This document shows, piece by piece, positions 20,104-48,554 of a stretch of 64,000 nt of DNA (position 1 is its first letter; each line of letters opens with the position of its first letter). The notes below the pieces were generated by a model. It worked only from the letters and a program-made list of their open reading frames with translations. It was not told where the DNA came from and searched no databases. The DNA is from Candidatus Rhodoferax odensensis (GTDB taxonomy: Bacteria; Pseudomonadota; Gammaproteobacteria; Burkholderiales; Burkholderiaceae_C): assembly GCA_016718405.1 (NCBI GenBank), contig JADKDJ010000035.1:39972-103971 (forward strand), given 5' to 3'. Made by a program: the position numbers and the translations under genes.

Positions 20104-20104
20104 G

Positions 20105-21832: not shown

Positions 21833-22119
21833 GGCATGCACGGCGCGTTGGGTGAACCACTCAAGCTTACTACCGCGCGATGCGGTTTTCCGCACTCGGG
21901 GGTCACTTCGCAGCGAACAACCGCGTCGCTGCACGGCAGGACCGCGTGAGCAGCGCCGCCCCCACGCGGGCAAGTGCAAGAGTGGCACTCTCCACACCGT
22001 TCACAATGCCAACAACTACCTGCATTTGCACGCCAGGCCATGTGACGTCAGGTCCCACGCAACGGACTTTGGCGCGCGGATGGCGCACCGGTGAACCACT
22101 TACTTCAGGAGACAGCCCC

Positions 22120-27302: not shown

Positions 27303-29438
27303 ATGTCCCGCCAACTCTTCGTCACCACCGCCCTGCCCTACGCCAACGGCAACTTCCACATCGGCCACATCATGGAGTACATCCAGGCCGATACCTGGGT
27401 GCGGCACCAGCGCATGCAGGGCAGCACGGTGCATTTTGTCTGCGCCGACGACGCCCACGGCGCACCGATCATGATCGCGGCCGAAAAGGCCGGCAAGACA
27501 CCGCAGCAGTTCGTGGCCGATATCGCCGCCGGGCGCAAACCCTACCTGGACGGCTTTCACATCAGCTTTGACAACTGGCATTCGACCGATGGCCCCGAAA
27601 ATCACGAACTGGCGCAGGACATCTACCGCGCCCTCAGGGCCAATGGGCTGATCAGCACGCGCACCATCGAGCAGTTTTACGACCCGCAGAAGGCCATGTT
27701 CCTGCCGGACCGTTTCATCAAGGGCGAATGCCCCAAGTGCGGTACGCAGGACCAGTACGGTGACAACTGCGAATCGTGCGGTGCGGTCTACAGCCCGACC
27801 GACCTGAAGAACCCCTACTCGGCCCTGTCGGGTGCCACCCCGGAGCTACGCAAATCGGAGCACTACTTCTTCAAGCTGTCCGACCCGCGCTGCGTGGCCT
27901 TTCTGGAGGGCTGGACCGCCGACGGCAACCACCTGCAAACCGAGGTCTACAACAAGATCAAGGAATGGCTGGTCCCGAAGGAAGACGGCCAGCGCGACCT
28001 GGGCGACTGGGACATCAGCCGCGACGCGCCCTACTTCGGTATCGAAATCCCCGACGCCCCCGGCAAGTATTTCTACGTCTGGCTGGACGCGCCGATTGGC
28101 TACCTGGCTTCGCTGAAAAACCTGTTCACCAAGAACCACGGGGCCACTGAAGGCGCCAAAGCGTTCGACAGCTTCCTGGCCGACCCGGCGACCGAACAGG
28201 TGCACTTCATTGGCAAGGACATCATCACCTTTCACACGCTGTTCTGGCCGGCCATGCTGCATTTCAGCGGCCGCAAGACGCCCAACGTGGTGCATGTGCA
28301 CGGCTTTTTGACCATCAACAGCGGCGAGAAGATGAGCAAGAGCCGCGGCACCGGGCTGGACCCCCTGAAGTACCTCGCCCTGGGTATGAACCCCGAGTGG
28401 CTGCGTTACTACCTGGCGACCAAGCTCAATGCCCGCAATGAAGATGTGGAGTTCAGCCCGGAAGACTTCATGGCCCGGGTCAACTCGGACCTGGTGGGCA
28501 AGTTCATCAACATTGCCTCACGCGCGGCGGGCTTCATTGCCAAACGCTTCGACGGCAAGTTGGGCGGCACCTCCGCGCACGGCGCTGGGGTGTTGGACAT
28601 CCTGCGTCAGCAGCGAGACTCGATCCGCGACGCGTTCGAGGCGCGCGAGTTCGCCCGCGCCCTGCGCGAGACCATGTTGCTGGCCGACCGCGTCAACGAG
28701 TACGTGGACCAGAACAAACCATGGGAACTGGCCAAGCAGGCCGGCATGGACGCACACCTGCAGGATGTCTGCACGGTGTGCATCGAGGCGTTTCGGCTGC
28801 TCACGATCTATCTCAAGCCGGTGTTGCCGGCGCTGGCGCAGCAGGTGGAAAGCTTCCTGAAAATCGAGCCGCTACGCTGGAGCGACGCCGACCAGAGCCT
28901 GGGCGCGGGCCACGTCATCGGCAACTACCAGCACCTGATGCAGCGCGTCGACGCCAAGCAGCTCGAAGCCTTGTTTGAGCCACCTGCGGACGCCACGCCA
29001 GCCCCTGCAGGCAACGCAGCTGCGGCGCCGCCGGCCGAGGTGCCACCTGGGGCCGCACCGGGTGGCGAGGCCATCGCCGCCACCATTGGCATTGACGACT
29101 TCGCCAAAATCGACCTGCGCATTGCGCGCATCGTGCACTGCGAAGCCGTGCCAGGCTCCACCAAGCTGCTGCGCCTGACGCTCGACGTCGGCGAGGACCA
29201 CGCCAACGGCAGCCCCAAGACCCGCAATGTGTTCAGCGGCATTGCGTCGAGCTACCAGCCGCAAGACCTGATCGGTAAGTACACCGTGCTGGTGGCCAAC
29301 CTGGCGCCGCGAAAAATGAAGTTCGGTGTATCCGAAGGCATGGTGCTGGCTGCCAGCCACGGCGACGAGAAGGCCAATCCGGGCATTTATGTACTGGAGC
29401 CGAGCCCCGGCGCGCAACCCGGCATGCGTGTGAAGTAG
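27303..29438 (+). CDS. metG: methionine--tRNA ligase
   Basis: ORF 27258..29438. The start is set at ATG 27303 ([22 protein letters not shown]). It has KMSKS, a zinc knuckle (CPKCG...CESCG) and a C-terminal tRNA-binding domain. Confidence 0.95.
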
Positions 29439-29718
29439 ATGTCGCGCGGGATGCCCCGACACGAAACCCAAGAACTGTAAGGGTTTGTATCCGTCAGGCG
29501 TAAACTACGCACCTGCATGCCTGCATCGCAACCCGTCCTCTCCCTGTTGACCAAGAAGCGTTTGTTCATCACACGCATGCGCCACTGTGGGCCTCCCCAG
29601 ACGATTTGAACCCTGCTCGTTCATTTCGTTGGTGGAGCCCTCATGAATCAATCTTGCCCAGCTAGTCATCTCCCTCTTGTTGTACCCGGACCTGCCGCCA
29701 TAGAGCGGGCTTAGCGCC

Positions 29719-31719
29719 ATGGTCCTGCTGATACTGGCGTCGAGCATCCTGCTGATCGGCGCCGGGCTTTGCCTGTTGCCGACACGCAATGCGGCGCGCG
29801 CCCGCGTCGCCATCGCTTCCCAAGTGCTGGCCACGGCGCTGGTGCTGGCGGTTGCGCTTCCGGTTCTTTTTGGTGCGCCCGAATTGAGCGCCAAACTGCC
29901 ATGGGCGTACCCGGTGGGCATATTTCGCATGCGTCTGGACGCGCTGGGCGCGTTCTTCCTGGTCTGGTCGCTGCCGATGACTTTGCTGGGCAGCCTCTAC
30001 GCCGTGGGCTACATGCGCCCCCACTTCAAAGGGCCACGCCACCTGGGCGTGCACTTTGCCCTGCTCAACCTGACTTCCATCTCTTTTGTATTGGTCTACA
30101 CCGGCGAGCACGCATTGATTTTTCTGCTCGGGTGGGAGGTGGCGGCGCTGGCCGCCTGGCTGTTGGTGATCTGGGACTACACCAACCAGAAGGTGCGCTT
30201 TGCGGGCTTCAACTACCTGGTCTCCACGCACATCGGTCTGATCTTTCTGGTGGCGGCGGTGATGATTCTCTACACCCATGCGGGCACTTGGTACCTTGGC
30301 GACTTTGGCGTCTGGCTGCACGCCAACCCAGGTCCCTTGCGCAATGCGATTTTTCTGCTGCTGGTGACCAGTTTCGGCCTCAAGTCCGCCTTCTTCCCCT
30401 TTCATTCGTGGTTGCCGCGCGCCCACGCAGCGGCACCGGCACACGTCTCCGCTCTCATGTCGGGCGTGATCCACAAGGCGGGCTTGTATGCGCTGGTGCG
30501 TTTCGTATTGCTGATCGGTCGGCCCGATGAATGGATGGGCTGGTTCCTGATTGGCTTCTCGGTCTGTTCCGCCCTGATCGGCGGCCTCTACACGGTGGGC
30601 CAGCGCGATCTGAAGCGGCTGCTGGGCTACTCGTCCACCGAAAACGTAGGCATTGCCGGCATCGGCCTGGGCGTGGGTTGCCTGGGGCTGACCTGGGGTC
30701 TGCCAACTTTGGCCGCACTCGGCTTTGCCGGCGGCCTGCTGCACATCCTGAACCATGCGTTTTTCAAGTGCCAGCTCTTCTATGCCGCGGGTGCGGTCTA
30801 CCAGACCACGCACACGGTGGACATGGAGCGCCTGGGCGGGCTGTCGCGCCTGATGCCCTGGACGGGCGTGTTTTTTCTCATCGGCGGTGTGGCGATCTCC
30901 GCCTTGCCGCCGCTCAACGGCTTCGCCAGCGAGTTCGTGATCTATTCCAGCCTGTTTGACAAGGGCTCATTCGACATCTGGGCCAAGCTCAGTCTGTGCG
31001 CCGTGGCCGCTGCGCTGGCTTTTGTGGGGGCGGTCTCGGCGCTGAGCATCACGCGTGCCTTTGGCGTCGTCTTCATGGGCGCGCCGCGCGACCCGACGCT
31101 ACCCGACGCCCACGAAGTCAATCGCTGGATGCTGCTGCCGATGGGCCTGCATGCCGTGGGCAGCGTGGTGCTGGGCGTGGTCCCGGCAGCGGGCTTTGCG
31201 CTGGTGTCCGGACCGGTTGCGCTGCTGCTGGGCGTGGCACCCAGCACGCCCAATGCCACCCTTGAACGTATCAGCGCGAGCTTGTCACGCATCGGGGCCA
31301 TCTCGGCCGTGCTGCTGGCTGGTGTACTGCTGGTGCTCTGGTGGCGCTCGCGGGTCCCGCTACGGCCTGCCCAAAGCGGTCCCACCTGGGGCTGCGGTTA
31401 CGGCAACATCAACACCCGCATGCAGTACACCGGCGCCAGTTTCTCCAACGACTTTTCGCGTCGCTTTCGCTCGGTGATGGTGTTGTTGCAGCGCAAGAAG
31501 GCGCCGCTTGGCTATTTCCCCGAGGACAGCTACGTCATTACCGATTGCGTGGACGCCGTCGAACGACGGCTCTATGCGGTCATTGGCCATGGTGACGAGT
31601 CGGCGACCCGCATCTCGAACAATCTGCACGAGGACGACCCGCGTTTTGCCTTCGCCGCCGCGCTGGTCGCCTTGCTGGTCATTGCCACGCTGGTGCGATT
31701 GGCAGGGGGCCCCCTGTGA
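29719..31719 (+). CDS. module 1: NuoL/HyfB(HycC)-like proton-conducting antiporter subunit
   Basis: 666-aa polytopic ORF. It has the signature FHSWLPRAHAAAPAHVSALMSGVIHKAG and a HyfB-type C-terminal extension (WGCGY...). Confidence 0.88.
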   Translation: MVLLILASSILLIGAGLCLLPTRNAARARVAIASQVLATALVLAVALPVLFGAPELSAKLPWAYPVGIFRMRLDALGAFFLVWSLPMTLLGSLYAVGYMRPHFKGPRHLGVHFALLNLTSISFVLVYTGEHALIFLLGWEVAALAAWLLVIWDYTNQKVRFAGFNYLVSTHIGLIFLVAAVMILYTHAGTWYLGDFGVWLHANPGPLRNAIFLLLVTSFGLKSAFFPFHSWLPRAHAAAPAHVSALMSGVIHKAGLYALVRFVLLIGRPDEWMGWFLIGFSVCSALIGGLYTVGQRDLKRLLGYSSTENVGIAGIGLGVGCLGLTWGLPTLAALGFAGGLLHILNHAFFKCQLFYAAGAVYQTTHTVDMERLGGLSRLMPWTGVFFLIGGVAISALPPLNGFASEFVIYSSLFDKGSFDIWAKLSLCAVAAALAFVGAVSALSITRAFGVVFMGAPRDPTLPDAHEVNRWMLLPMGLHAVGSVVLGVVPAAGFALVSGPVALLLGVAPSTPNATLERISASLSRIGAISAVLLAGVLLVLWWRSRVPLRPAQSGPTWGCGYGNINTRMQYTGASFSNDFSRRFRSVMVLLQRKKAPLGYFPEDSYVITDCVDAVERRLYAVIGHGDESATRISNNLHEDDPRFAFAAALVALLVIATLVRLAGGPL

Positions 31720-32639
31720 TGCCAACGCTGTTGACGCTGGTCCACGTTGCGCTGGTGCTGTGCATGCCGATTGCGCTGGTTGGCATCGTCAACCGCACCA
31801 AATCGTGGTGGGCCGGCCGCAAGGGTCCACGCTTGCTGCAATCGGCCCATGACCTGCGCCGGCTGCTGGGCAAGCGGCCTGTCTACAGCCACACTGCTGG
31901 GCGCTTGTTTGGCGCGGGCGCCTACATCACCCTGCTGGCCGGCTTGCTGGCGGCGAGCATGGTGCCGATACTAGGCGGCTTTGCGCCGCTGCAGTTCGAG
32001 CATGACTTCATCGTCGTGGCCTACGCCCTGGGGCTTGGCCGCATCGTGCTGATGCTGTCGGCGATGGACGTTGGCAGCGCGTTCGAGGGCATGGGCGCGG
32101 CGCGCGAGGCGTCTTTCACCGCATTTGTCGAGCCCGCCCTGTTTCTGCTGATCGGTACCGCCAGCGTGGCTACCGGCCACACCAGCTTCGCCAGTCTGCT
32201 GGGCGGTCTGCACGCGGCCCCCGGCTTCGGCTGGTTGGTGGCACCCGCCGTCGTCGCACTGCTCATCTTGCTGCAGGCCGAAGCCGCCCGCGTGCCGGTG
32301 GATGACCCTATGACCCACCTTGAACTCACCATGATCCACGAGGTCATGATTCTCGACCACAGCGGGCCGGAGCTGGCAGCGATGCAGTACGCGGCAGCGC
32401 TGAAGATGAGCCTGTACGCGGGCCTGATTAGCACCCTGCTCAACCCGCTGGACCCGTTCGCGGCACCGCTCGCCAGCCTGGCCATGACGCTGCTGCTAAC
32501 GAGCGGCGTGGCCGTCGCCGTCGGCTGCGTGGAGTCCCTGACGGCGCGCCTGCCGATGCGCTGGGTGCCACCTTACCTGCTGGTGGCGTCGGTGGCGGCC
32601 CTGATGTGTTGGTTACTGGTCGGCACGCTGACGCCATGA
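31716..32639 (+). CDS. module 1: NuoH/HyfC(HycD)-like membrane subunit
   Basis: 307-aa ORF. A GTGA/ATG overlap joins it to the upstream stop. The sequence EAARVPVDDPMTHLELTMIHEVMILDHSGPELA is typical of the HycD/NuoH family. Confidence 0.85.
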   Translation: MMPTLLTLVHVALVLCMPIALVGIVNRTKSWWAGRKGPRLLQSAHDLRRLLGKRPVYSHTAGRLFGAGAYITLLAGLLAASMVPILGGFAPLQFEHDFIVVAYALGLGRIVLMLSAMDVGSAFEGMGAAREASFTAFVEPALFLLIGTASVATGHTSFASLLGGLHAAPGFGWLVAPAVVALLILLQAEAARVPVDDPMTHLELTMIHEVMILDHSGPELAAMQYAAALKMSLYAGLISTLLNPLDPFAAPLASLAMTLLLTSGVAVAVGCVESLTARLPMRWVPPYLLVASVAALMCWLLVGTLTP

Positions 32640-33259
32640 CTCTCGCCATGACACCCCCGCTGAGTCTGTTTCTGGCGGCTTGCGTGCTGCCGGTTTTCTT
32701 CGCCAGGATTCGCGCCGTGCCGCTGTGGCTGGCGGTGCAGGCGCTGGCGCTGGCCTGGATCACGCTGGCGCAGCATGGCGAACTGTCCCTGCACTCACTG
32801 ACCGCTGCTGTGGAAATCGTGGCCGTGCGTGGCTGGCTGGCGCCTGCTCTGCTATGGCGAACGCTGGCAGCGCACCCATTGGCGCGCACTGACCTTATGC
32901 CGTCCAATCTGTTTGCCTGGGGCGCGGCCGTCACGGTCATCATTCTGGCCCTTGAATTCGGCATCGGCGCAAGCGTCGATGCGGGCGCATTGACGCTGGG
33001 CGCGGTCAGCGTCAGTGTCAGCGTGGCCTTGCTCATCCTGGCCACCAACGCTGCCGCGCCCGCGCAGTTGCTGGCCCTGCTGTTTATGGAAAACGCACTG
33101 GCCCTGTTCGAATCCACCATGCCAACGCCATGGCCATGGCCCGTGCACGGCGCCTTGAGCGCGGTCTATCTGCTCACGGTTGCCGTTGGCAACTGGCTGG
33201 CGGCCAGCGATAAGTCGCTGGGGACCGTGGTCGCCGAAGAAGCGAGGGACAACGCATGA
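32636..33259 (+). CDS. module 1: HyfE-like (NuoK-related) small membrane subunit
   Basis: ATG 32636 forms an ATGA overlap with the upstream stop. It has the FMENALALFES motif and four or five TM helices. Confidence 0.8.
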   Translation: MTLAMTPPLSLFLAACVLPVFFARIRAVPLWLAVQALALAWITLAQHGELSLHSLTAAVEIVAVRGWLAPALLWRTLAAHPLARTDLMPSNLFAWGAAVTVIILALEFGIGASVDAGALTLGAVSVSVSVALLILATNAAAPAQLLALLFMENALALFESTMPTPWPWPVHGALSAVYLLTVAVGNWLAASDKSLGTVVAEEARDNA

Positions 33260-34770
33260 GCGCCGCGCCGGGCCGCCCCAAGCAAGCTCGCACCGCGGCC
33301 CGTAAGGGCGAAGCTACCCCCGCGACCACGGTAAGACTGGCGGACGCCAGGCTGGCTGCGCCGACAGCGACCAGCGATTCAGCGCACCCGCGCAAATGGG
33401 TGGCGCCGGCCCTGGTGGTGGTGGCCCTGCTGGTCTGGCTGGCGGCGCTGGCGCTTTTCATCACGACGCCGCTCAGCGAATTGCCGCGCTACTTCCTGCA
33501 ACGCTATTTCGTGCTGGATGCCACCTCGCTGCTGTTTGTGTTGCTGATCAACACGGTGTTTCTGGGCATTGCGGTCTATCTGTATTCCCGTGAACGATCG
33601 TCGCGCCTGCTGGCGCAGGACATATTGCCGCGTGCCCTGTTGTCGCTGATGTTCATGCTGATCATGAATCTGGGCGTGTTGTCCAACAACCTGGTGGTGC
33701 TGTGGGCCCTGATCGAGGCCAGCACGCTGTGCGCCGCGCCGCTGGTGGCGCGCGGGGATGCCGCCAACCCGCGACAAGTGGCCTGGCGCTACATGCTGTA
33801 CTCGGCGATGTCGCTGGCCATCACCTTCCTGGGTTTTCTGTGTCTGACCGAATCGGCTCACCTGCGTGGCGTCGCGATCAGTTTCCAGGTCGATCAATTG
33901 GGCTCGGCTCTGTCGGCCTCGCCCGATCGCTGGCAGCGGCTGGGCTTGGCGCTGATGCTGTTCGGGCTGGGCAGCAAGCTGGGACTGGCGCCGCTTTACG
34001 GCTGGCTGCCAGAAACCTACGAGACTGCGCCCACCAGCACCAGCGCCTTGTTGGCGGCGGTGCAGTTCAACATCAGCGTGGTCGCGGTGTTTCGGGTGCT
34101 GCAAGTGTTCCGGGGCCAGGACGGCGGCTTTGTGTCGCAAGAGCTGCTGGTGATGGGCTGCCTGTCCCTGATCGTGGCCGCCATTCAGGTCATGGCGGCG
34201 CGCAATTACAAACGGCTGATCGCCTACGCCTGCGTCAGTTCATCCGGGGTGATCGCGATTGGCCTGTCGGTTGGCAAGGCCGCCACCTACGGGGTGGTGC
34301 TGTATGTGGTCAGCAACGCGTTTGTCAAGGCACTGCTGTTTCTGTCGGCGGGCCGCCTGCGCTCGGTCTACGGCACCAACCAGACCGCCGCGCTGACCGG
34401 TGTGATCAAGGTGCTGCCCTTCTCTGGATTGCTGTTCGCGGTGGGTATCTTCGCCCTGCTGGGCTTTCCGCCATTTGCCAGCTTTCTGGCCGAAATGCTG
34501 ATCCTCTCGGGCATTGTGCAGGCTGGCAACCTGATGGCCTTTGCCCTGTTGTGCAGCATGCTGACCATCATCTTCGTGGCCACCGGTCGCACCGTGTTCC
34601 CGATGCTGTGGGGCGCCAGCGAGCAACCCCGCGCGCCGCATCAGGAGTCGATCCTGACCATCCTGCCCAAGCTTGGATTTGTTGGCGTATTGGTGATGCT
34701 GGGCGCCTACACGCCAGAGCGAGTGAGTCGCCTGCTGGTCGTGGTGGCCGAGTCGATCGGGGGGCGATGA
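33256..34770 (+). CDS. module 1: NuoN/NuoM / HyfF-like antiporter subunit
   Basis: 504-aa ORF with an ATGA overlap at 33256. It has the sequence LGLAPLYGWLPETYETAPTSTSALLAAV. The Ala/Arg-rich N-terminal 45 aa make the start uncertain. Confidence 0.82.
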   Translation: MSAAPGRPKQARTAARKGEATPATTVRLADARLAAPTATSDSAHPRKWVAPALVVVALLVWLAALALFITTPLSELPRYFLQRYFVLDATSLLFVLLINTVFLGIAVYLYSRERSSRLLAQDILPRALLSLMFMLIMNLGVLSNNLVVLWALIEASTLCAAPLVARGDAANPRQVAWRYMLYSAMSLAITFLGFLCLTESAHLRGVAISFQVDQLGSALSASPDRWQRLGLALMLFGLGSKLGLAPLYGWLPETYETAPTSTSALLAAVQFNISVVAVFRVLQVFRGQDGGFVSQELLVMGCLSLIVAAIQVMAARNYKRLIAYACVSSSGVIAIGLSVGKAATYGVVLYVVSNAFVKALLFLSAGRLRSVYGTNQTAALTGVIKVLPFSGLLFAVGIFALLGFPPFASFLAEMLILSGIVQAGNLMAFALLCSMLTIIFVATGRTVFPMLWGASEQPRAPHQESILTILPKLGFVGVLVMLGAYTPERVSRLLVVVAESIGGR

Positions 34771-36251
34771 TGGAGATACGCGAGCCCGTCCTGGTGCTGC
34801 CCCTGCGCGAACTTGCCGTGCTGGATATGCCAGCGCTGGCGCAACGCTGCGCCGAACAATTGCAAGCGGGTGCACGGCTGGTGACCCTTTTTGGTCGGCC
34901 CGACGCCGAGGCGAGTTGGGTCGCCACTGCCATCCTGCAAGGCCCGGACGGTGAATTGACTGCCCTGCGGGCCGAGTTCCAGAGCGGTACAAGCTACCCC
35001 GGGCTGACACCACGCTTTGCGCAGGCCCAGATCCTTGAACGCGAGTTGTGGGAGCAAACCGGTATCACGCCACTTGGTCACCCCTGGCTCAAGCCGGTGC
35101 GGTTTGAGGGCACACGCCAGCAGCAGATGGCGGACTACCCCTTCTTCAAGGTGCGTGGGCAGGAGGTGCATGAGGTGGGCGTGGGCCCGATTCACGCCAG
35201 CGTGATCGAGCCGGGGCACTTTCGCTTCATGTGCCTGGGCGAGCGGGTCTACCACCTTGAAATCCAGCTGGGCTACCAGCATCGCGGCATCGAGCCGATG
35301 CTGCTACGACGCGCACCCCTGACCTTGGCCAGCACGGTGGAGTCCATCTGCGGTGACGCCTGCATCGCCTACGCGTGGGCGTATTGCTCAGCCATGGAAG
35401 CACTCGGCGATACCCCGATCCCGGCCGAGATCGAGCTGATACGCGGTGTGGCATTGGAACTCGAACGTATTGCCATGCACTTGGCCGCCCTGGGCGGCTT
35501 GGCCACCGACATTGCCTTCCTGCAAGGCGGTGCCAGCTATGGCCGCCTGCGCACCGCCATCATCAACGCCAGCATGCGGGTGTGTGGCAGCCGCTTCGGG
35601 CGTGGCTGGTTGTGCCCGGGCGGAGTCCGATTTGGCTTGACCGATGCACTGCGCCAGGATCTGGCTCAGACGCTGGGCGCGTTTGCCAGGGACATTGCCG
35701 AGGTCAACGCGTTGATGTTAGGTGCGCGCAGCGTGCAGGCGCGCTTTCAGGGTATCGGCAAGGTCAGCACGCAGGCTGCGCGGGACCTGGGCCTGGTAGG
35801 TCTGGTGGCGCGCGCCAGCGGCGTGGCACTCGATACGCGCAGCAGCCTGCCGGGCTTGCTGCACCAGCACTGGCCAATCTCCAGCCTGACCGAAAGCACG
35901 GGCGATTGCTGGGCGCGCATGCAACTGCGCATGCGCGAGATCGACACGTCCCTGACCTGGCTTGTGAACGTGCTTGGCGACCACGCGTTGGACCTGCGCG
36001 CCCAGCCGGTGCGGGTCAACCCGGCGCTGCGCCCAGACGCCTTGTGCGTGTCCCTGCGAGAGGGCACGCGCGGACCTGTGTTGCACGTGGCGGAAACCAC
36101 TGGGCAAGGCACGCTGCGGCACTACAAGGTGCAAGACCCGTCCCTGCAGAACTGGTTTGGCCTGGCGCTCGCGGTACGCGACAACGGCATTTCGGACTTT
36201 CCCATCTGCAACAAGAGCTTTGACCTCTCCTATTGCGGCAACGACCTGTAG
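34767..36251 (+). CDS. module 1: NuoC-NuoD/HycE-like large subunit without canonical NiFe CxxC pairs
   Basis: ATG 34767 (ATGA overlap) lies in the frame of ORF 33702..36251. It has GVGPIHASVIEPGHFRF and HLEIQLGYQHRGIE. At the L1 position it has ESICGDACIAY, and its C-terminus is FPICNKSFDLSYCGNDL. Confidence 0.85.
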   Translation: MMEIREPVLVLPLRELAVLDMPALAQRCAEQLQAGARLVTLFGRPDAEASWVATAILQGPDGELTALRAEFQSGTSYPGLTPRFAQAQILERELWEQTGITPLGHPWLKPVRFEGTRQQQMADYPFFKVRGQEVHEVGVGPIHASVIEPGHFRFMCLGERVYHLEIQLGYQHRGIEPMLLRRAPLTLASTVESICGDACIAYAWAYCSAMEALGDTPIPAEIELIRGVALELERIAMHLAALGGLATDIAFLQGGASYGRLRTAIINASMRVCGSRFGRGWLCPGGVRFGLTDALRQDLAQTLGAFARDIAEVNALMLGARSVQARFQGIGKVSTQAARDLGLVGLVARASGVALDTRSSLPGLLHQHWPISSLTESTGDCWARMQLRMREIDTSLTWLVNVLGDHALDLRAQPVRVNPALRPDALCVSLREGTRGPVLHVAETTGQGTLRHYKVQDPSLQNWFGLALAVRDNGISDFPICNKSFDLSYCGNDL

Positions 36252-36259
36252 GCCCTCCC

Positions 36260-37009
36260 ATGTTGAAATCCATCGCTGTACGGGTGTCACAAGGCACGCA
36301 ATACATCCCGGACCCGCGCAAGGCAAATCCGGTCGGGTTTCGCGGCAAACCCGTCATCGCAGATGCCGCGTGCGAGCCCTCTTGCGAGGCCTGCGTGACG
36401 ACCTGTCCGACCGGTGCCATCACACTCGATCCGGTTCAGATCGATCTGGGTCGCTGCACACTTTGCATGGATTGCGAGAGCGTCTGCCCCAGCGCCAAGT
36501 TCTCGTTCTCCAATGACTTCAGGCTGGCCAGCGCCGAGCGGGCCGGTCTGGTGCTGACGGCGACGCGACGCAACGTGGACCCGGTCGAAGTGTCGCAGGC
36601 GCTGCGCCAGCGCTTTGGCCGCTCGCTCAAATTACGCTCGGTGTCGGCCGGTGGCTGCAATGGCTGCGAGCTGGAGGTGAATGCCCTGGCCAACGTCAAC
36701 TTCGACATCGGCCGCTACGGCATCGACATCGTTGCCTCGCCACGGCACGCCGACGGTCTCGTGCTAACCGGCCCGATCACCCGCAACATGACCGAAGCCT
36801 TGCAGATTTGCTGGGATGCGATGCCCGCGCCCAAGCTGGTGATTGCGGTGGGCGCCTGCGCCATATCGGGCGGCCTGTTTGCGCACCAGGATGCCGTGGA
36901 TCGAGGCTTCCTGGAGCGCGTCAAACCAAGCTTGTATGTGCCCGGCTGCCCGCCCCATCCGCTGACCTTTGTCTGCGGGGTGCTTGATCTGCTGGGTATT
37001 CCGAGCTGA
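36260..37009 (+). CDS. module 1: fusion of 2x[4Fe-4S] ferredoxin (HycF/NuoI-like) with NuoB/HycG-like small subunit
   Basis: ATG 36260. The ferredoxin part has CEPSCEACVTTCP and CTLCMDCESVCP. The NuoB-like part has GGCNGCELE, GACAISGG and PGCPP. Confidence 0.85.
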   Translation: MLKSIAVRVSQGTQYIPDPRKANPVGFRGKPVIADAACEPSCEACVTTCPTGAITLDPVQIDLGRCTLCMDCESVCPSAKFSFSNDFRLASAERAGLVLTATRRNVDPVEVSQALRQRFGRSLKLRSVSAGGCNGCELEVNALANVNFDIGRYGIDIVASPRHADGLVLTGPITRNMTEALQICWDAMPAPKLVIAVGACAISGGLFAHQDAVDRGFLERVKPSLYVPGCPPHPLTFVCGVLDLLGIPS

Positions 37010-37056
37010 CGGGCACGACTGTGGACCGACGCACGGGATGAGACCGCAGCCACGGG

Positions 37057-38232
37057 TCAAGGCGCCAAGGGGTTGGAGAAACGACGCCAACTTATGCAGC
37101 GCACCCCTTCACGGGTATAGCTCTCATTGCCACCGTGAATGAGCCAGGGCTCGGGCGTTGGCTCAGTGACAAAGCGGGCGGCGCGTTGCCCGGCGCGCAC
37201 CAGGTCCGGCGTGATGGTCTGGCCGGACTTGATCTCGACACACTGCAAGCCCTGCGCGCTCTCGAACACCAGGTCAGCCTCCAGCCCGTTGTTGTCGCGC
37301 CAGAAGTAGAGGTCCGCCGGCAAGCCGCGATTGTCTCGGAACTTGCGAAACTCGCCGACAACCCAGGTTTCAAACAAGGCGCCGCGCATCGGGTGCAGCG
37401 CCAGCAGTGGCTCCTCGCGGATGCCCAACAGCCACGCGGCCAAACCGGTGTCGGTGAAATACAGTTTGGGTGTCTTGACCAGGCGCTTGCCAAAATTGCG
37501 GTGATACGGCTGCAGCAGGAACACCAGTTCGCTCGACTGCAGCACCGACAGCCAATGGCGCGCCGTGGTGTGACTCACGCCGGCGTCCGTGGCAAGCGAC
37601 ACCAGATTGAGCAGCGTGCCGGTTCGGGCGGCGCACAGGCGCACGAACCGCGCAAAGGTGGACAAATCCTGGACGCGCAGCAGTTGGCGCACGTCGCGTT
37701 CGACATAGGTCGCCACATAGCTGGAGAACCAGTCCATTGCCTCGATCGGTGAACGCTCCACCTGCCACAGGCTGGGGTACGAACCCAGCCACAAATGGGT
37801 ATACAAGTCTCGCTGCACTGCCGGGCCTAACTCGGACATCGCCAATGGCAGCAGCCTGGTGAGCCCAACGCGACCAGCCAGGGATTGCGTGACACCGGCC
37901 ATCAGGCCAAACTGTTGCGACCCGCTCAGGACGAAGCGCCCTGGCCTGCGGTCGGCATCGACCATGCCTTGCAGTAGAGAAAACAGCTCGGGCCAGCGCT
38001 GCGCCTCGTCGAAGATGGCGCCCTGGTCGAAGCGCTGCAGAAACCCCCTCGGATCGGTCTGCGCAAAACCAAGTTCCACCGGGTCTTCCAGCGACACATA
38101 GGTCTTGTCGGCAAAGACTTCGCGCACCAGCGTGGTCTTGCCGGACTGTCGCGGCCCCGTCACCGCCAAGACGGGGAACTGGCGCGCCAGGCGCAGCAAG
38201 GTAGCAGATAAGTCTCTGGGGAAGATATTCAT
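37057..38232 (-). CDS. AAA-family ATPase with DUF4143-type C-terminal domain
   Basis: ORF 37057..38256. The likely start is ATG 38232 (MNIFPRDLSATLLRLARQFPVLAVTGPRQSGKTTL). It has Walker A and Walker B-like (IFDEAQ) motifs. The upstream region is very AT-rich. Confidence 0.85.
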   Translation of the reverse strand: MNIFPRDLSATLLRLARQFPVLAVTGPRQSGKTTLVREVFADKTYVSLEDPVELGFAQTDPRGFLQRFDQGAIFDEAQRWPELFSLLQGMVDADRRPGRFVLSGSQQFGLMAGVTQSLAGRVGLTRLLPLAMSELGPAVQRDLYTHLWLGSYPSLWQVERSPIEAMDWFSSYVATYVERDVRQLLRVQDLSTFARFVRLCAARTGTLLNLVSLATDAGVSHTTARHWLSVLQSSELVFLLQPYHRNFGKRLVKTPKLYFTDTGLAAWLLGIREEPLLALHPMRGALFETWVVGEFRKFRDNRGLPADLYFWRDNNGLEADLVFESAQGLQCVEIKSGQTITPDLVRAGQRAARFVTEPTPEPWLIHGGNESYTREGVRCISWRRFSNPLAP

Positions 38233-38327
38233 ACAATTTGCATATATAAAATTCATATTGTATAGAAATCAGTCTTGAAGTCCATCCCGAGTGGCGGCTT
38301 CAAGTCGGGGCGGTCGCGCCCGCTGGT

Positions 38328-38840
38328 TCAGGCTCGCCGGCGCACCGCGCTCAGGATGCCGCGCAGAATCTCCAGCGGTGGCGGCGGGCAGCCCGACACC
38401 AGCACATCCACCGGGATCACATTGGCCACCGCGCCACAACTGGCGTAACTCTCGCCAAAAATGCCGCCATCACAACCACAGTCGCCCACCGCCACCACCA
38501 GCTTGGGAGAAGGCGTGGCGTCATAGGTACGCTTGAGCGCTTCTTCCATGTGGCGCGACACCGGCCCGGTCACCAGCAGCAGATCGGCATGGCGCGGACT
38601 GGCGACAAACTTGAGGCCCAGCCCCTCAATGTTGTAGTAGGGATTGGTCAACGCGTGAATCTCCAGTTCACAGCCATTGCAGGAGCCGGCATCCACCATG
38701 CGAATCGCCAGCGCCTGGCCCAGAATCTCCAACAATTCGCGCCCGATCGCCTGCGCCTGCGCGCGCTGGTTCTCGTCGAATGCGGGCGGCGCCTCCGTGC
38801 GAATTCCGTTGACCGCGATCTGGCGAATGATCTTCCACAT
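38328..38840 (-). CDS. module 2: NuoB/HycG-like small subunit
   Basis: ATG 38840 (ATGA overlap with the large-subunit stop) lies within ORF 38328..38948. It has GSCNGCELE, GDCGCDGG and SGCPPPP. Confidence 0.85.
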   Translation of the reverse strand: MWKIIRQIAVNGIRTEAPPAFDENQRAQAQAIGRELLEILGQALAIRMVDAGSCNGCELEIHALTNPYYNIEGLGLKFVASPRHADLLLVTGPVSRHMEEALKRTYDATPSPKLVVAVGDCGCDGGIFGESYASCGAVANVIPVDVLVSGCPPPPLEILRGILSAVRRRA

Positions 38841-40372
38841 CAGAGGTCGTGCCCCGAGTAACTGAGGTTGAAGGACTTGTTGATCAACGGAAAGTCCGGC
38901 ACGATGTTGCCAATCACCGCGTGCTCCAGCACCGGCCAGTTTTGCCACGAGGGGTCATGGCAGTGGCAGCGGCGGATTCGTTGTGGCTGCCCTGCATCGG
39001 CCAGCTCCAGCGCCACCAACACTTCGCCGCGCCAGCCCTCGACCCAACCGGCACCAAACGCGGCTGGCGGTGGCAGCGGCACAGCAGTGTGAACCGGCCC
39101 GGGCGTCAAACTCTCCAGAAGCGTCTGCATCAGGCGCAAGGACTCGGCCAACTCCTCGAACCGGACGATCACGCGGGCCGCCACATCACCGCCACGGTGC
39201 GTCACCATACGCGCCTGCAAGCGGTCATAAGGCGGCACGGCATGGTCGCAGCGCACGTCCCAAGCTTGCCCGCTGGCGCGCCCGGCCAGGCCGGTCAGAC
39301 CAAGTTGCGCCGCCAGGCCCGGCATGACCCGCCCGGTTGTCAAAAAGCGGTCCTGCAGACCCGCGTGCTCGTCGTAGATGACCCTCAGCGCCTGCACCTC
39401 GCGAGCGATGGCTTCGCCATGCTGGCGCAGTTGATCGACCTGCGCCGTATCAATATCGCTAGCCACGCCACCTGGGACGATGCGGTCCATCATCAGACGG
39501 TGCCCAAACACCTGGCCCGACCGGCGCAGCCAGTCTTCGCGCAGGCGCGAGAACTGCGCCAGACCAAAAGCGAATGCGGCGTCGTTGCCGAGGGCACCGA
39601 GGTCAGCCAGGTGGGCTGCCACGCGTTCGCGCTCCAACATCAGCGCGCGCAGCTCCGCCGCGCGGGCCGGCACCTCGACACCGCAGGCGGACTCCAGCGC
39701 CATGCAATAGGCCCAGGCATAGGCCACGGTGGAGTCGCCCGACACACGGCCCGCCAAACGGTGAGCCTGCAAGGGGTCGAGCTGCGTGAAGCGCCGCTCA
39801 ATCCCCTTGTGGGTGTAGCCCAGGTGTTGCTCCAGCCGCAGCACCTTCTCGCCCACCACCGAGAAGCGGAAATGCCCCGGCTCGATGATGCCCGCGTGCA
39901 CCGGACCCACCGCGATTTCATGCACGCCGTCGCCTTGCACCCGCACAAAGGGATAGCCACCGGGCGGCGTCCCCGCCGCCCAATTGCATGCCTCGTCAAG
40001 CAAGGGCGGCCGCGCGCCAAGCCACAAACCATGGTCGAGCCAAGGCCGACTGTCCAGGCTGGACGCGGCCTGCAGCCCATTTAGGTCCGCCAAGGCCCGC
40101 TGCATGCGGCTAGCGGCCGGAAATATGCCAGCCAGGTCGGGATAGACCCGTTCGGGGGGGCTAAGCACCAGCTCCAGCCAGAGCAAGCCTTCCAGCACGG
40201 CATAGGCCACCGATACCGCCACCCGATCCGCCGCGGTCACCCCCCACACCGCTACCAGTCGCCCGCCACCCTGGCGCACCGCCATGGCTGTGCTCAGCCA
40301 TTGGTCGGCGCTGACAAGGCCACGCCAGATTGGCGCCGCGCCGGGCAGACGTTGCAGGTCCAGGTCCATCAT
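38840..40372 (-). CDS. module 2: NuoC-NuoD/HycE-like large subunit with no cysteines at the NiFe-ligand positions
   Basis: ATG 40372 (ATGA overlap). It has AVGPVHAGIIEPGHFRF and LEQHLGYTHKGIE. At the L1 position it has GRVSGDSTVAY (39725..39745), and its C-terminus is FPLINKSFNLSYSGHDL. Confidence 0.85.
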   Translation of the reverse strand: MMDLDLQRLPGAAPIWRGLVSADQWLSTAMAVRQGGGRLVAVWGVTAADRVAVSVAYAVLEGLLWLELVLSPPERVYPDLAGIFPAASRMQRALADLNGLQAASSLDSRPWLDHGLWLGARPPLLDEACNWAAGTPPGGYPFVRVQGDGVHEIAVGPVHAGIIEPGHFRFSVVGEKVLRLEQHLGYTHKGIERRFTQLDPLQAHRLAGRVSGDSTVAYAWAYCMALESACGVEVPARAAELRALMLERERVAAHLADLGALGNDAAFAFGLAQFSRLREDWLRRSGQVFGHRLMMDRIVPGGVASDIDTAQVDQLRQHGEAIAREVQALRVIYDEHAGLQDRFLTTGRVMPGLAAQLGLTGLAGRASGQAWDVRCDHAVPPYDRLQARMVTHRGGDVAARVIVRFEELAESLRLMQTLLESLTPGPVHTAVPLPPPAAFGAGWVEGWRGEVLVALELADAGQPQRIRRCHCHDPSWQNWPVLEHAVIGNIVPDFPLINKSFNLSYSGHDL

Positions 40373-42270
40373 CGCCCGACGCCCCCCAACATGCCAGCGG
40401 CCTGAACGTACCATTGGTTCAAGTAAGGCGGAATGAACAGGCCCAGCACCAACCCCAGACCAAGATGAACGAACACCGGTAGCAAGGCCGGTGGATGCGC
40501 CAGCGGTTTGAGCGAGGTTTCGCCAAACACCATCGGCAACACGCGCACCAGCACCGAGGCAAAGGCCAGACCCAGCGCGAAGAACAGGAATGGCGCGGCC
40601 CAGGGCTGCTCGCGCATGGCGGTGGTCAAAATCAAAAACTCGCTGGCAAACACGCCAAAAGGCGGCATGCCCAGGATTGCCATGACGCCCAGCATCATTC
40701 CCCAGCCCACTCTCGGGTTGACCTTGATTAGACCGCGAATTTCACTCATCACCTGGGTCCCGGCCTTCTGCGCCGCATGCCCGACGGTGAAGAAGATGGC
40801 CGACTTGATCAACGAGTGCACCGTCATGTGCAACAGCCCCGCAAAGTTGGCCACCGGCCCGCCCATTCCAAAAGCAAACATGATCAGACCCATGTGTTCG
40901 ATCGACGAGTACGAAAACATGCGCTTGACGTCCTTCTGGCGCGACAGGAAAAAGGCCGCCACCACCAGCGACAGTAGGCCAAAACCCATCATCAATTGCC
41001 CAGCCAGTGGCCGCTGCAAGGCGCCATCGGTCAACACCTTGCAGCGCAGCAGCGCGTACATCGCCACATTGAGCAGCAGACCCGACAGCACGGCGGACAC
41101 CGGCGTAGGCCCTTCGGCATGCGCGTCGGGCAGCCAGCTGTGCAGCGGCACCATGCCGACCTTGGTGCCGTAGCCGATAAACAGGAAAGCAAACGCCAGC
41201 GTGATGATGTGCGGATCGAGCTGGGATTTGACCGCATCCAGATTCGTCCACAGCAGCGCGCCGCCTTCGGGGCCCACCACCTTTTCCGCCGCCATGTAAA
41301 GCAAAATGGTGCCGAACAGGGCCAGGGCGATGCCAACACCGCACAGAATGAAGTACTTCCAGGCCGCCTCCAGGCTGGCCGGTGTGCGGTAGACACTAAC
41401 CAGCAGCACGGTGGTGAGCGTCGCTGCCTCCATCGCGACCCACAGAATACCCAGGTTGTTCGTGGTCAGGCCCAGCAGCATGGTGCAACTGAACAACTGG
41501 TACATGCCGTGGTACAGGCGCATGCGCGGCGGAGTCATCTTGCCGTGGTCTTGCTCAACACGCATGTAGGGCCGCGAGAAAATGGCCGTGGTGAGGCCGA
41601 CAAACGCTGTCAAGGTGACCATGAAGACGTTCAGCGGGTCAATAAAGAGGCTGTCGAACTGCTCGCGAATCTGGAACATGAAGACGCCCCGAATCAGCAC
41701 ACCGACCAGCACGTCGAGCGCAACACCAAACTCCACAATCATTGGCATGCCATTGGTGACGGTGGTGGCCGCAAAAATCAAGCCGTTTTCCATCGACAAA
41801 AAGCCGATCACCTGCGGCACCGCCTTGGACCGGGTGATCATCATCAGGAAGGACAGCAGCACGCAGGCCAACGCGATGCCCAGCGAGCCACCGGCCATCG
41901 AACTGGACAAGCGAGAGATGGGCAGCGCCAGGCTGAACGAGAAGATCACCAGCCCAATCCCGACCAGCATGGTGGTTGGGATGTTGATCAGGGTCTCCAC
42001 ATCCCAGCGCACGTTCAATCGACGAACGACCACGTGCAGCAGCCACGGAATCAACATGACTTTGAGCACCAGCGTCAAGGCCGCCGACACGTAGAGTTCA
42101 TTCTGGTGCGTGACGTAGCCAAGCAGCACGGAGGCAATCACCAGCGCCAGGCCCTGCAGCATGAACAGGTTGATCAGCGACACAATGCGTCGCTGCGAGA
42201 TCATGGCGAAGGACAGCAACAGGATCACGGTGGCGCACAGGTTGATCAATTGCGGGATGTACTTCATCAC
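40369..42270 (-). CDS. module 2: fused HyfE-like + NuoN/HyfF-like membrane subunit
   Basis: 633-aa ORF. The N-terminal ~215 aa are HyfE-like (FLSMENGLIFAATT). The rest is antiporter-like (VPLHSWLPDAHAEGPTPVSAVLSGLLLNVA). A GTG/ATG start overlaps the upstream stop. Confidence 0.85.
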   Translation of the reverse strand: MMKYIPQLINLCATVILLLSFAMISQRRIVSLINLFMLQGLALVIASVLLGYVTHQNELYVSAALTLVLKVMLIPWLLHVVVRRLNVRWDVETLINIPTTMLVGIGLVIFSFSLALPISRLSSSMAGGSLGIALACVLLSFLMMITRSKAVPQVIGFLSMENGLIFAATTVTNGMPMIVEFGVALDVLVGVLIRGVFMFQIREQFDSLFIDPLNVFMVTLTAFVGLTTAIFSRPYMRVEQDHGKMTPPRMRLYHGMYQLFSCTMLLGLTTNNLGILWVAMEAATLTTVLLVSVYRTPASLEAAWKYFILCGVGIALALFGTILLYMAAEKVVGPEGGALLWTNLDAVKSQLDPHIITLAFAFLFIGYGTKVGMVPLHSWLPDAHAEGPTPVSAVLSGLLLNVAMYALLRCKVLTDGALQRPLAGQLMMGFGLLSLVVAAFFLSRQKDVKRMFSYSSIEHMGLIMFAFGMGGPVANFAGLLHMTVHSLIKSAIFFTVGHAAQKAGTQVMSEIRGLIKVNPRVGWGMMLGVMAILGMPPFGVFASEFLILTTAMREQPWAAPFLFFALGLAFASVLVRVLPMVFGETSLKPLAHPPALLPVFVHLGLGLVLGLFIPPYLNQWYVQAAGMLGGVGR

Positions 42271-43217
42271 CCCACCCCCAGCAAGATGTTCACCAGCAAG
42301 CCAATCACCGCCAGCAGGAACGCGGTAGCCAAAAACTCGGGCACGCGGAAGATCCGCATCTTGGCGCTGAAGGTTTCAACCAGCGCCAGCAACATGCCCC
42401 CAATGGCGAGCTTTCCTACCAGCGCCGGCAAGGCCATGATCAGCGCCAAGGGCGCATCCGCCTCGGCCACGCCCCACGGGAAAAACAGCGCCAGGCCGAT
42501 GCACGAGTAGGCAAATAGCTTGAGGCTGGCGGCCCACTCCAGCAACGCCAGATGGCGCCCGGAGTATTCCAGAATCAGCGCCTCGTGAATCATCGTGAGT
42601 TCCAGGTGCGTTTCCGGGTTGTCCACCGGGACACGAGCGTTTTCCGCCAACGACACCATGGTGAAGGCCACGCCCGCCACCAGCAGGCTGGGGTAAATTG
42701 CCAGCTCCCTGTGCGCAAGCGTCTCGACAATGGTGGTCAACGAGGTGGACTTTGAAATCATGGATGCGCAAAACAGCACCATCAGCAACGCGGGCTCCGC
42801 CAGAAACCCCACCAGCATGTCGCGGCGCGCGCCCAGGCCGCCAAAGGCGGTGCCGATGTCCATCGCCGCCAGGGAAGCAAAGACACGGGCCAGTGCAAAC
42901 AGACCGACCAGGGCAATCGCGTCCGCCGCGGGGGACAGCGGCAGGTCGGTCGATAGCGTGGGCACAATGGCGCACGCCAGCACCATGCAGCCAAAGCTGA
43001 TGTAGGGAACCATCCGAAACAGGGACGAAGCCTGCTCGGCCACCACCGATTCCTTGTGAAACAGCTTGCGCAATACCCGATAGGGCTGCAACAGGCCCGG
43101 CGCCGACTTGTTCTGCAAGCGGGCGCGCCACTGGTTGACCCAGCCCGTCAGCAGCGGTGCCAGCAGCAGCGCCGCCACAATCGCCATCAGTTGCGAGAAC
43201 AGGCCCAGAAGACTCAT
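42267..43217 (-). CDS. module 2: NuoH/HyfC(HycD)-like membrane subunit
   Basis: ATG 43217 (ATGA overlap) lies within ORF 42267..43358. It has ENARVPVDNPETHLELTMIHEALILEYSGRHLA. Confidence 0.85.
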   Translation of the reverse strand: MSLLGLFSQLMAIVAALLLAPLLTGWVNQWRARLQNKSAPGLLQPYRVLRKLFHKESVVAEQASSLFRMVPYISFGCMVLACAIVPTLSTDLPLSPAADAIALVGLFALARVFASLAAMDIGTAFGGLGARRDMLVGFLAEPALLMVLFCASMISKSTSLTTIVETLAHRELAIYPSLLVAGVAFTMVSLAENARVPVDNPETHLELTMIHEALILEYSGRHLALLEWAASLKLFAYSCIGLALFFPWGVAEADAPLALIMALPALVGKLAIGGMLLALVETFSAKMRIFRVPEFLATAFLLAVIGLLVNILLGVG

Positions 43218-47816: not shown

Positions 47817-48554
47817 TTAAGCCTCGCTGAACGAAGCCGTCTGCAACAGATTGCTGTCGCCAAAGGTGGCACGGAACAATTCAATACTGTCGCGCAAATC
47901 AGCTGCCGAAAGTGCATGACCCTTCCCGGCAAAAACAATCACGTTGCCTTCCCGATTGGCCAAGACTTCTGCGAGGTTACCGTTGAATGATCGATCTATT
48001 CGCTCGATGAATGTCTCGTAGAAGTGATGGGTCTCATGAAGGTTGACAGCCATAACGCCGTGGTCGCTCAAAACCCTGCTACAGCCGTCGTAAAAATCCT
48101 GGGAACACAATTGCGGTGGCTGCCCGCGGTGATCAAAACCGTCAACCAACAACACATCCACATCACATTCTGCGTGACGTACAAAGTCGGCGCCGTCCGC
48201 CTCGATCACTTTGAAACGCTCGTCATCGTCGGGCACCAGGAACTCTCTTCGCAATGCGATGACATGAGGGTTGATTTCCACTGCTGTTATCCGTGCTTCT
48301 GGCAGATTCCGATAGCAATACTTCGCCAGACTCCCGCCCCCCAAGCCGATCATCACAATGTGGCGCGGCCGAGGGTTCAGAACCAGGAAGCCCATCATTG
48401 TCTTGGTGTAATCAACATCCAATTGGTCCGGTTGAGCAACCCGCATCCTGCTCTGCAGTTGATCAATGGAAAAGTGCAACGACTTGCAACCCCCTTCGTA
48501 AAAGGCAAACGGAATTGGGTGTTTCGGAATTTTTGTATCGACGTGTTCTGACAT
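47817..48554 (-). CDS. SpeE-like (spermidine synthase fold) SAM-dependent transferase
   Basis: ORF 47817..48641 (TTG start). I prefer the ATG at 48554 (MSEHVDTK...) by comparison with the paralog N-terminus. It has IVMIGLGGGSLAKY, AVEINPHVI, LLVDGFD and MAVNL. Confidence 0.8.
   Translation of the reverse strand: MSEHVDTKIPKHPIPFAFYEGGCKSLHFSIDQLQSRMRVAQPDQLDVDYTKTMMGFLVLNPRPRHIVMIGLGGGSLAKYCYRNLPEARITAVEINPHVIALRREFLVPDDDERFKVIEADGADFVRHAECDVDVLLVDGFDHRGQPPQLCSQDFYDGCSRVLSDHGVMAVNLHETHHFYETFIERIDRSFNGNLAEVLANREGNVIVFAGKGHALSAADLRDSIELFRATFGDSNLLQTASFSEA

Follow-up and report, generated by a model that had tools for sequence, protein, structure and literature searches.

An energy-converting hydrogenase-related (Ehr) complex of a Burkholderiales genome and the conserved cysteines of its large subunit

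Introduction

What does a membrane complex do when its large subunit resembles that of a group 4 [NiFe] hydrogenase and does not carry the residues that would hold nickel and iron? This question is raised by a tight cluster of six genes, here called module 1, in Candidatus Rhodoferax odensensis. The cluster was delimited from the list of open reading frames (ORFs) with Pfam and NCBIfam, and lies at 29719-37009 on the + strand of the window, by which we mean the whole 64,000-nucleotide stretch that was analysed (contig JADKDJ010000035.1, positions 39,972 to 103,971). Its last two genes encode the large subunit E1 (34767-36251) and the fused small subunit F1 (36260-37009). The original prediction for this DNA held that four cysteines of E1 persist near, but not at, the ligand positions, where they could form a different metal or cofactor site or mark an evolutionary intermediate between hydrogenase and complex I.

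We conclude that module 1 is a six-gene energy-converting hydrogenase-related (Ehr) complex, and that it is neither a [NiFe] hydrogenase nor a canonical quinone-reducing complex I. Taken as a whole, the data are probably best explained by an Ehr complex in which electron transfer through three clusters would be coupled to ion translocation, two of the four cysteines, Cys195 and Cys199, being neutral.

Results

E1 lacks the [NiFe] ligand set and is predicted to keep the hydrogenase fold

E1 reads ESICGDACIAY at the L1 motif and ends in FPICNKSFDLSYCGNDL. We assigned its ligand positions by HMMER alignment to E. coli HycE (PDB 7z0s_E, E = 8.3e-41), and only one of the four canonical [NiFe] positions is occupied by cysteine, namely that of the first L1 cysteine, by Cys195 (35349-35351). 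The position of the second L1 cysteine holds Ala198, with Cys199 (35361-35363) offset by +1, and that of the L1 histidine holds Tyr202 (35370-35372). At the C-terminus, Ser488 and Gly491 take the positions of the two L2 cysteines; Cys490 (36234-36236) lies between both, and Cys481 (36207-36209) seven residues upstream of the first. All four cysteine codons are TGC, and the two pairs span CGDAC at 35349-35363 and C-NKSFDLSY-C, around the former L2 motif, at 36207-36236 on the + strand. E1 therefore has neither the C-G-x-C-x3-H motif with both cysteines nor the D-P-C-x-x-C motif near the C-terminus that group 4 [NiFe] enzymes require.

This alignment reproduces the one made by hand for the original prediction, including the CxxxC spacing without a trailing histidine and the serine and glycine at the L2 positions with cysteines one and seven residues away, and it supports the view of E1 as a relative of hydrogenases and complex I without the [NiFe] ligand set. 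The description of the four cysteines as near, but not at, the ligand positions holds for Cys199, Cys481 and Cys490 and fails for Cys195, which sits on a canonical position.

Other hydrogenase features are retained. The E1 motif GPIHAxxIEPGHFRF is nearly identical to GPLHVTSDEPGHFRLF of HycE, and the arginine of the E-x-x-R-G motif is also kept. The AlphaFold2 model of E1 (pLDDT 96.7, pTM 0.95) has HycE as its best Foldseek match (7z0s_E, TM 0.88) and the E. coli NuoCD fusion as the next best, and thus predicts that the hydrogenase fold is retained. In the model, Cys195 caps the N-terminus of helix 196-213, in which Cys199 and Tyr202 lie; Cys481 lies in helix 475-485 and, after the loop 486-488, Cys490 in the short helix 489-493. 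An exact-sequence look-up of E1 gave no match, and its nearest database protein, of metagenome origin, is 98% identical.

The C-terminal cysteines are conserved and the N-terminal pair is not

Conservation in orthologues, which the original prediction had itself named as the result that could refute it, was followed in three sets of relatives. These were the 120 closest database homologues of E1 (64-98% identity, mostly Burkholderiales: Variovorax, Glaciimonas, Dechloromonas), 150 representatives of 50%-identity clusters, and 84 loci from at least 12 phyla, made up of the best 80 out of at least 598 that emerged when one genome per GTDB species was scanned, plus four other loci.

The N-terminal pair did not pass. 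Position 195 is Ala in 51, Cys in 42 and Val in 27 of the close homologues, and Ala in 64, Cys in 12, Ser in 4, Val in 2 and Gly in 2 of the loci. At position 199 the close homologues have Ser (86), Cys (22), Ala (11) or Arg (1), and none of the 84 loci has Cys. Both cysteines occur together in only 20 of the 120 close homologues, the ten nearest relatives included. In a rough neighbour-joining tree, Cys199 appears only in the subclade nearest E1, as a recent local gain, and Cys195 is nested in clades that otherwise have Ala or Val.

In contrast, Cys481 and Cys490 are conserved far beyond chance. Together with Cys156 (35232-35234, + strand), which the original prediction had not noted, Cys207 and Cys381, each is present in all 120 close homologues. 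Across the 84 loci, Cys156 is invariant, position 481 is Cys in 80 and Asn in 4, and position 490 is Cys in 72, Ser in 6 and Ala in 5. Ser488 is found in all 84 loci and Gly491 in 83, Cys at position 273 in 69, and position 202 is His in 67 and Tyr in 16. One of Cys481 and Cys490 is missing from 15 of the 84 lineages and no lineage lacks both, so the two do not form an obligatory pair. Among the cluster representatives, one large clade keeps SDFP[LI]C-NKSF[ND]LSYC-G.DL and Cys156. Its sister clade, which includes the second large subunit of the window (E2, below), has Ile/Val and Ser/Ala at the places of the E1 C-terminal cysteines and Val, Ala or Ser at position 156, and a few distant matches in the same search are true hydrogenases with ERICGVC..H and NKSFELCYSCTDR.

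We therefore regard Cys156, Cys481 and Cys490 as a real signature of the clade, and Cys195 and Cys199 as lineage-specific, apparently neutral substitutions among small residues that take no part in a site. The Ehr descriptions in accessible papers call the ligand cysteines missing and do not mention conserved cysteines at positions 156, 481 and 490.

Most of the family carries His at position 202; Tyr appears there in two separate clades, Burkholderiales and Melainabacteria. Cys195 is accompanied by Tyr202 in each of the 12 genome loci that have it, but not every Tyr202 goes with Cys195. We considered a compensatory exchange of His202 to Tyr with Ala195 to Cys and rejected it, as Tyr202 stands with Ala or Val at 195 in L001, L010, L011 and many Variovorax, and five of the cluster representatives combine Cys195 with His202.

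These patterns bear on two readings of the E1 cysteines. According to the first, Cys195, Cys199, Cys481 and Cys490 would act together as ligands of another metal or cofactor that replaces NiFe. All four lie in or beside the former L1 and L2 motifs, by homology lining the pocket that faces the proximal cluster, and all four occur together in E1 and its nearest relatives (P0001-P0011). Since the N-terminal pair is a local substitution, such a four-cysteine site is left without support; a site that the complex needs would not be dispensable in orthologues with 64-79% identity and the same operon. We consider this reading highly improbable.

The second reading limits the site to Cys481 and Cys490, which would define the chemistry of E1-type Ehr with possible contributions from His/Tyr202, Asp197 and Cys156. 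The candidates are a thiol-based reductase beside the proximal cluster, following the logic of MBS or ferredoxin:thioredoxin reductase, and a mononuclear Cys2-His(/Asp) metal site. The cysteine counts above, which hold for 12 or more phyla with an overall identity of 38-46% and a mean column identity of 34%, speak for such a site. So do the replacements, which are Asn, Ser and Ala (here called polar) and not the Ile/Val of the E2-type paralogue, the near invariance of Asp197, Ser488, Tyr489, Gly491 and Asp493, and the place of Cys490 between both former L2 ligand positions. On the other hand, the single losses make an obligate dithiol or disulfide unlikely, the model puts the two cysteines in different helices with a loop between them, and conserved buried cysteines can be purely structural. 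On balance we judge this second reading somewhat unlikely. The wider claim that Cys156, Cys481 and Cys490, with His/Tyr202 and Asp197, build a new metal or redox-thiol active site in the former NiFe pocket, one that would account for what Ehr complexes do, is in our view doubtful.

The ferredoxin-NuoB fusion is a conserved family trait

F1 (+ strand, 249 aa) consists of an N-terminal HycF/MbhN/NuoI-like 2x[4Fe-4S] domain (36260-36574, residues ~1-105), which contains CEPSCEACVTTCP and CTLCMDCESVCP and matches the NCBIfam HyfH/HycF subfamilies at ~2e-13, followed by a NuoB/HycG/MbhJ-like domain (36593-37009; Pfam Oxidored_q6, 2.4e-28) with the ligands Cys133, 136, 200 and 230. In phmmer searches, residues 13-96 match MbhN (6cfw_N, 4.5e-11) and HycF (7z0s_F, 7.3e-9), and residues 112-247 match MbhJ (5.4e-29) and HycG (7.3e-29). 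The first ferredoxin motif is Cx3CxxCxxxCP. As the original prediction had read from the gene, the fusion and its Cx3C first spacing are present; the 12 ligand cysteines form complete sets for three [4Fe-4S] clusters, arranged as in formate hydrogenlyase (FHL) and MBH.

The 120 closest F1 homologues all have ~249 aa and both domains, with the eight ferredoxin cysteines (Cx3C spacing included) and the four NuoB cysteines invariant. The ferredoxin and NuoB-like domains lie side by side next to the large-subunit gene in 77 loci and share one ORF in 74 of them, and 48 of these 74 fused proteins show the Cx3C/Cx2C spacing pattern. The fusion is thus real, conserved and functional-looking, but it is an already known trait of the family.

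Operon layout

The first gene of module 1 (29719-31719, + strand like the others; 666 aa) encodes a HyfB/NuoL-like antiporter-like membrane subunit (Pfam Proton_antipo_M, 9.5e-53) that scores 472 bits with the NCBIfam model for hydrogenase 4 subunit B, below the cut-off of 667. It is overlapped by 4 bases by the gene of a HyfC/HycD/NuoH-like membrane subunit (31716-32639; 307 aa; Pfam NADHdh, 1.9e-22). A HyfE-like small membrane subunit follows (32606-33259) that matches no Pfam or NCBIfam model; genes of 204-215 aa without Pfam match stand at the same place in L001, L003 and L005, and ORF clusters of this size are present in 62 loci. As listed, with its start at 32606, this ORF overlaps the preceding gene by 34 bases. 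Translation more probably begins at the ATG at 32636, which gives an ATGA 4-base overlap like other junctions. The HyfF/NuoM/N-like antiporter-like subunit (33256-34770; 504 aa; Pfam Proton_antipo_M, 7.4e-39) reaches 192 bits with the model for hydrogenase 4 subunit F, again under the cut-off. E1 (34767-36251; 494 aa), whose start overlaps this gene via ATGA, is an Ehr-type NuoC-NuoD/HycE-like fusion with the Pfam domains Complex1_49kDa and Complex1_30kDa, and F1 completes the operon. Overall, module 1 scores far under the cut-offs of the curated NCBIfam models for NuoD, HycE-type and hydrogenase-4 subunits.

The six-gene operon, fused small subunit included, recurs in other loci at 66% and 44% large-subunit identity, its gene order is kept in L001, L003 and L005, and Variovorax and related Burkholderiales have the same operon at ~67-69% identity. 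A promoter and terminator scan of 29300-38400 did no better than on shuffled sequence. Only 280 bp separate metG from the operon in the window.

Module 1 belongs to the Ehr family

The assignment to Ehr follows from what defines the family. Module 1 clusters homologues of NuoB, NuoD (with NuoC), NuoH and the antiporter-like subunits, its large subunit is group 4-related without the Ni/Fe-coordinating residues, and it shows the NuoC-NuoD and NuoI-NuoB fusions known from Ehr of Margulisbacteria and Firmicutes. The membrane core of NDH-1 (NuoA, H, J, K, L, M, N), on the other hand, is not fully represented: module 1 has only four membrane genes, of which the HyfE-like one has no Nuo match. The relatives of E1 come from the same taxa as published Ehr, and form a clade apart from NiFe enzymes in a rough neighbour-joining tree built without reference Ehr sequences.

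In GTDB species genomes, at least 598 E1-type loci were found, some of them in Melainabacteria, Victivallales and Spirochaetota, groups from which Ehr has been described (PMC6349859). The 80 best matches are spread over Pseudomonadota, Spirochaetota, Bacteroidota, Melainabacteria, Planctomycetota, Verrucomicrobiota, Desulfobacterota, Acidobacteriota, Myxococcota, Omnitrophota, Chlamydiota and others. The founding description of Ehr is reportedly that of Marreiros in 2013.

An Ehr complex encoded by NuoC-NuoD and NuoI-NuoB genes together with HyfB, HyfF, NuoH and HyfE is known from Riflemargulisbacteria and Melainabacteria (PMC6349859, Supplementary Note 4). Published descriptions present Ehr as related to group 4 (4f), without metal-binding cysteines and with its function unsolved (PMC6349859, PMC4758237, PMC10284858). 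The idea of an evolutionary intermediate is likewise the published view for Ehr and Hyq (PMC4758237), so that the original prediction adds no new inference on this point. Module 1 shares with published Ehr the gene set, the loss of the NiFe ligands and the taxa among its relatives (Melainabacteria, Lentisphaerae/Victivallales, Spirochaetota). It differs in coming from an aerobic Burkholderiales-type genome, in standing beside a second paralogous module, and in having Tyr instead of His at 202 as well as the local Cys195 and Cys199.

The comparison with better-known complexes is consistent with this placement. E. coli FHL and hydrogenase-4 (HycE/HyfG, HycF/HyfH, HycG/HyfI; 7z0s) provide in HycE the best sequence and structure match to E1, and have the same membrane subunit order (B, C, E, F, G, then H/I) and chain of three [4Fe-4S] clusters. 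Unlike them, module 1 is without the NiFe ligand set, a formate dehydrogenase and HyfA/D/J/R, and its HycF-like and HycG-like parts are fused, with the Cx3CxxCxxxCP first ferredoxin motif. MbhJ and MbhN of the Pyrococcus furiosus MBH/MBS/Mbx group (6cfw, 6u8y) are the best PDB matches to the two halves of F1; yet MBH and MBS have 13-14 subunits with a Mrp-type sodium module and separate NuoI-like and NuoB-like proteins, and MBH has all four cysteines. Complex I/NDH-1 (NuoB, C, D, H, I, L, M, N) shares the homologous core fold, the terminal N2-like cluster and the antiporter-like subunits, whereas module 1 has no N-module, no NuoA/J/K set and no equivalents of the quinone ligands Tyr87 and His38.

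A paralogous module and the genomic surroundings

Downstream of module 1 lies module 2, a paralogous Ehr/Hyq-like cluster of five genes on the - strand (38328-45238) encoding a HyfB-like subunit, a HycD-like subunit, a HyfE-HyfF fusion (40369-42270, - strand), the large subunit E2 and a NuoB-like subunit. E2 has no cysteine at any ligand-related position (RVSGDSTVAY ... FPLINKSFNLSYSGHDL), and with 36% identity to E1 the two are old paralogues. The HyfB and HyfF parts of module 2 pass the NCBIfam hydrogenase 4 cut-offs, which those of module 1 do not. Its NuoB-like subunit has the proximal-cluster ligands only and no ferredoxin domain, which fits the HyqI-type small subunit.

Hyq of Azorhizobium caulinodans (HyqBCEFGI) shares with module 1 a six-subunit core of a complex-I-like enzyme, an aerobic host and a NuoC-NuoD large subunit of ~500 aa. 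However, HyqI has only the four cysteines of an N2-type cluster and no ferredoxin domain, as opposed to the 12 ligand cysteines and the NuoI-like domain of F1; compared by description and not by sequence, Hyq therefore resembles module 2 rather than module 1.

E1-type and E2-type modules are also found no more than 10 kb apart in L001 (15212-21488), L011 (13290-15349) and L064 (7537-9872), which suggests a functional link between both paralogous complexes. Two of these loci are from Pseudomonadota and one is from a Verrucomicrobia metagenome-assembled genome.

Between modules 1 and 2 the window has an AAA_14/DUF4143 ATPase gene (37057-38256, - strand). In L001 the modules are instead separated by TerC, an unannotated gene and a spermine-synthase-like gene; the window has a gene of the last type as well, at 47817-48641. 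In 33 of the 84 loci, mainly from Spirochaetota, Bacteroidota, Planctomycetota and Verrucomicrobiota, a co-directional and often overlapping HTH_17 + PTS_EIIA_2 (EIIA-Ntr-like) gene stands directly upstream of the hyfB-like gene (e.g. L013, 4332-5009; L025, 4226-4936); the window has no such gene. Near the operon, eight loci encode a SulP-family transporter with a STAS domain (e.g. L014, 14269-16044). Some Verrucomicrobia (L060, L079) have a third antiporter-like gene ahead of the EIIA-like gene, and no DabA-like or carbonic-anhydrase-like neighbours were found at this gene in these two loci.

Discussion

We propose that a low-potential soluble donor, of the ferredoxin/flavodoxin type or a docking oxidoreductase, would feed electrons into the NuoI-like domain of F1. 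From there they would move on to the proximal cluster and finally reduce an acceptor where the large, small and NuoH-like subunits meet, in the remodelled pocket. The transfer would be coupled to ion translocation via the two antiporter-like subunits, or the whole process might run in reverse. MBS offers a precedent of a hydrogenase-derived complex that has lost NiFe and acts on another substrate.

Which acceptor this might be is a matter of graded likelihood. A quinone is a possible but not a favoured candidate, the host being a betaproteobacterium of the ubiquinone type; acceptor chemistry on the conserved Cys481 and Cys490 with His/Tyr202 seems somewhat less than plausible; and H2 is, at best, very unlikely. 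The remaining probability falls to other acceptors or to a non-redox function.

The quinone candidate belongs to a fuller reading, in which module 1 would be a ferredoxin:quinone oxidoreductase, a minimal analogue of complex I/NDH-1, with cysteines of purely structural importance. NuoH-, NuoB-, NuoD- and NuoI-like parts are all present, and the aspartate aligned with Nqo4 Asp139 is kept (according to the HMMER alignment, with the residue number counted by hand). The host clade consists of aerobic Burkholderiales, and ubiquinone reduction has been proposed for the Hyq relative (PMC3357923). Against this, the alignment places Gly196 and Ile147 of E1 at Nqo4 Tyr87 and His38, NuoA, NuoJ and NuoK are not all represented, and members of the family abound in lineages that ferment or are poor in quinones, Gastranaerophilales and Riflemargulisbacteria among them (PMC6349859). 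We would entertain this reading tentatively.

Module 1 could also be read as a functional hydrogenase whose active site departs from the canonical one, a claim made for Azorhizobium Hyq. Genetics tie the six-subunit Hyq to H2 oxidation and evolution in A. caulinodans, and to H2 recycling (PMC2650096, PMC3357923), and the GPIHAxxIEPGHFRF motif and the arginine of E-x-x-R-G are conserved in E1. Nevertheless, E1 has cysteine at one of the four NiFe positions only, and that one is variable; a Pfam scan of 43 ORFs of the 64-kb window showed no hyp maturation or nickel genes; and the likeness of Hyq is to module 2. Moreover, the Hyq authors themselves term the catalytic site of HyqG speculative, and other authors judge Ehr unlikely to act on H2. 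Hence we give a hydrogenase function of module 1 hardly any credence.

Several observations weigh against the electron-transfer mechanism itself. No donor or acceptor gene is conserved beside the operon in the fetched loci, and the searchable literature yielded no experiments on any E1-type complex. E1 has no counterparts of the quinone ligands of complex I, as described above, and the case for quinone as a general acceptor is weakened by the presence of the family in lineages for which a lack of quinone synthesis is reported (PMC6349859). A candidate partner lies 8-12 kb upstream of module 1, where the - strand encodes an FdsA-like molybdopterin formate dehydrogenase subunit with a NuoG-like N-terminus (17227-20178) and a NuoE-NuoF fusion protein (20105-21997), and supercomplexes of formate dehydrogenase and Ehr have been proposed in the literature. 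We rejected this FdsA-like/NuoE-NuoF (FdsBG) pair as a conserved partner, since no homologue lies within 10 kb of the operon in the other fetched loci.

The clusters, too, are not universal. In eight loci, L054, L071, L078 and L082 (Bacteroidota-type), L029 and L035 (Planctomycetota) and L055 and L063 (Verrucomicrobiota), the proximal-cluster ligands are replaced, e.g. C..C/C/C by S..E/E/W or D..C/D/N. Likewise, one ferredoxin cluster (Cys38/42/45) is lost in six Melainabacteria/Gastranaerophilales-type loci (L017, L021, L022, L027, L040, L041) and some others; the remaining ferredoxin cluster (Cys49, 66, 69, 72) is kept by all 74 fused proteins. The large-subunit cysteines persist in both groups of loci. 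A three-cluster electron wire is therefore not the mechanism of the family as a whole, while F1 of the window keeps all 12 ligands.

In the eight loci with a replaced proximal cluster, two to four ligands of this N2-like cluster are gone, and the rest of the protein and Cys156/481/490 are conserved. Their small-subunit genes lie just downstream of position ~11500.

That Cys481 and Cys490 are kept where the proximal cluster is lost argues against a cluster-coupled thiol chemistry, not against a non-redox metal site. As some lineages dropped the proximal cluster and kept the cysteines, Ehr chemistry might not involve electron transfer and might instead consist of a non-redox reaction coupled to energy on the scaffold of complex I.

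For the window, the outcome is mostly deflationary: the CxxxC motif is local noise and the fusion a known family trait. Module 1 is a further member of the already named, functionally unsolved Ehr family and not a new kind of complex. The residual interest lies in its unexplained Cys156/481/490 signature and in the function of Ehr, not in the CxxxC motif or the fusion. Three conserved cysteines in or near the old active site give a sharper target than the notion that the cysteines are missing, and the comparison also singles out a ferredoxin cluster that is never lost and lineages without the proximal cluster. Some Variovorax strains are cultured and genetically tractable and, as Variovorax has the same operon, Ehr function would be directly testable there. 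Of the complex I superfamily members still without a known substrate, Ehr complexes rank with the most widespread, the E1 type alone having turned up in at least 598 species-level genomes.

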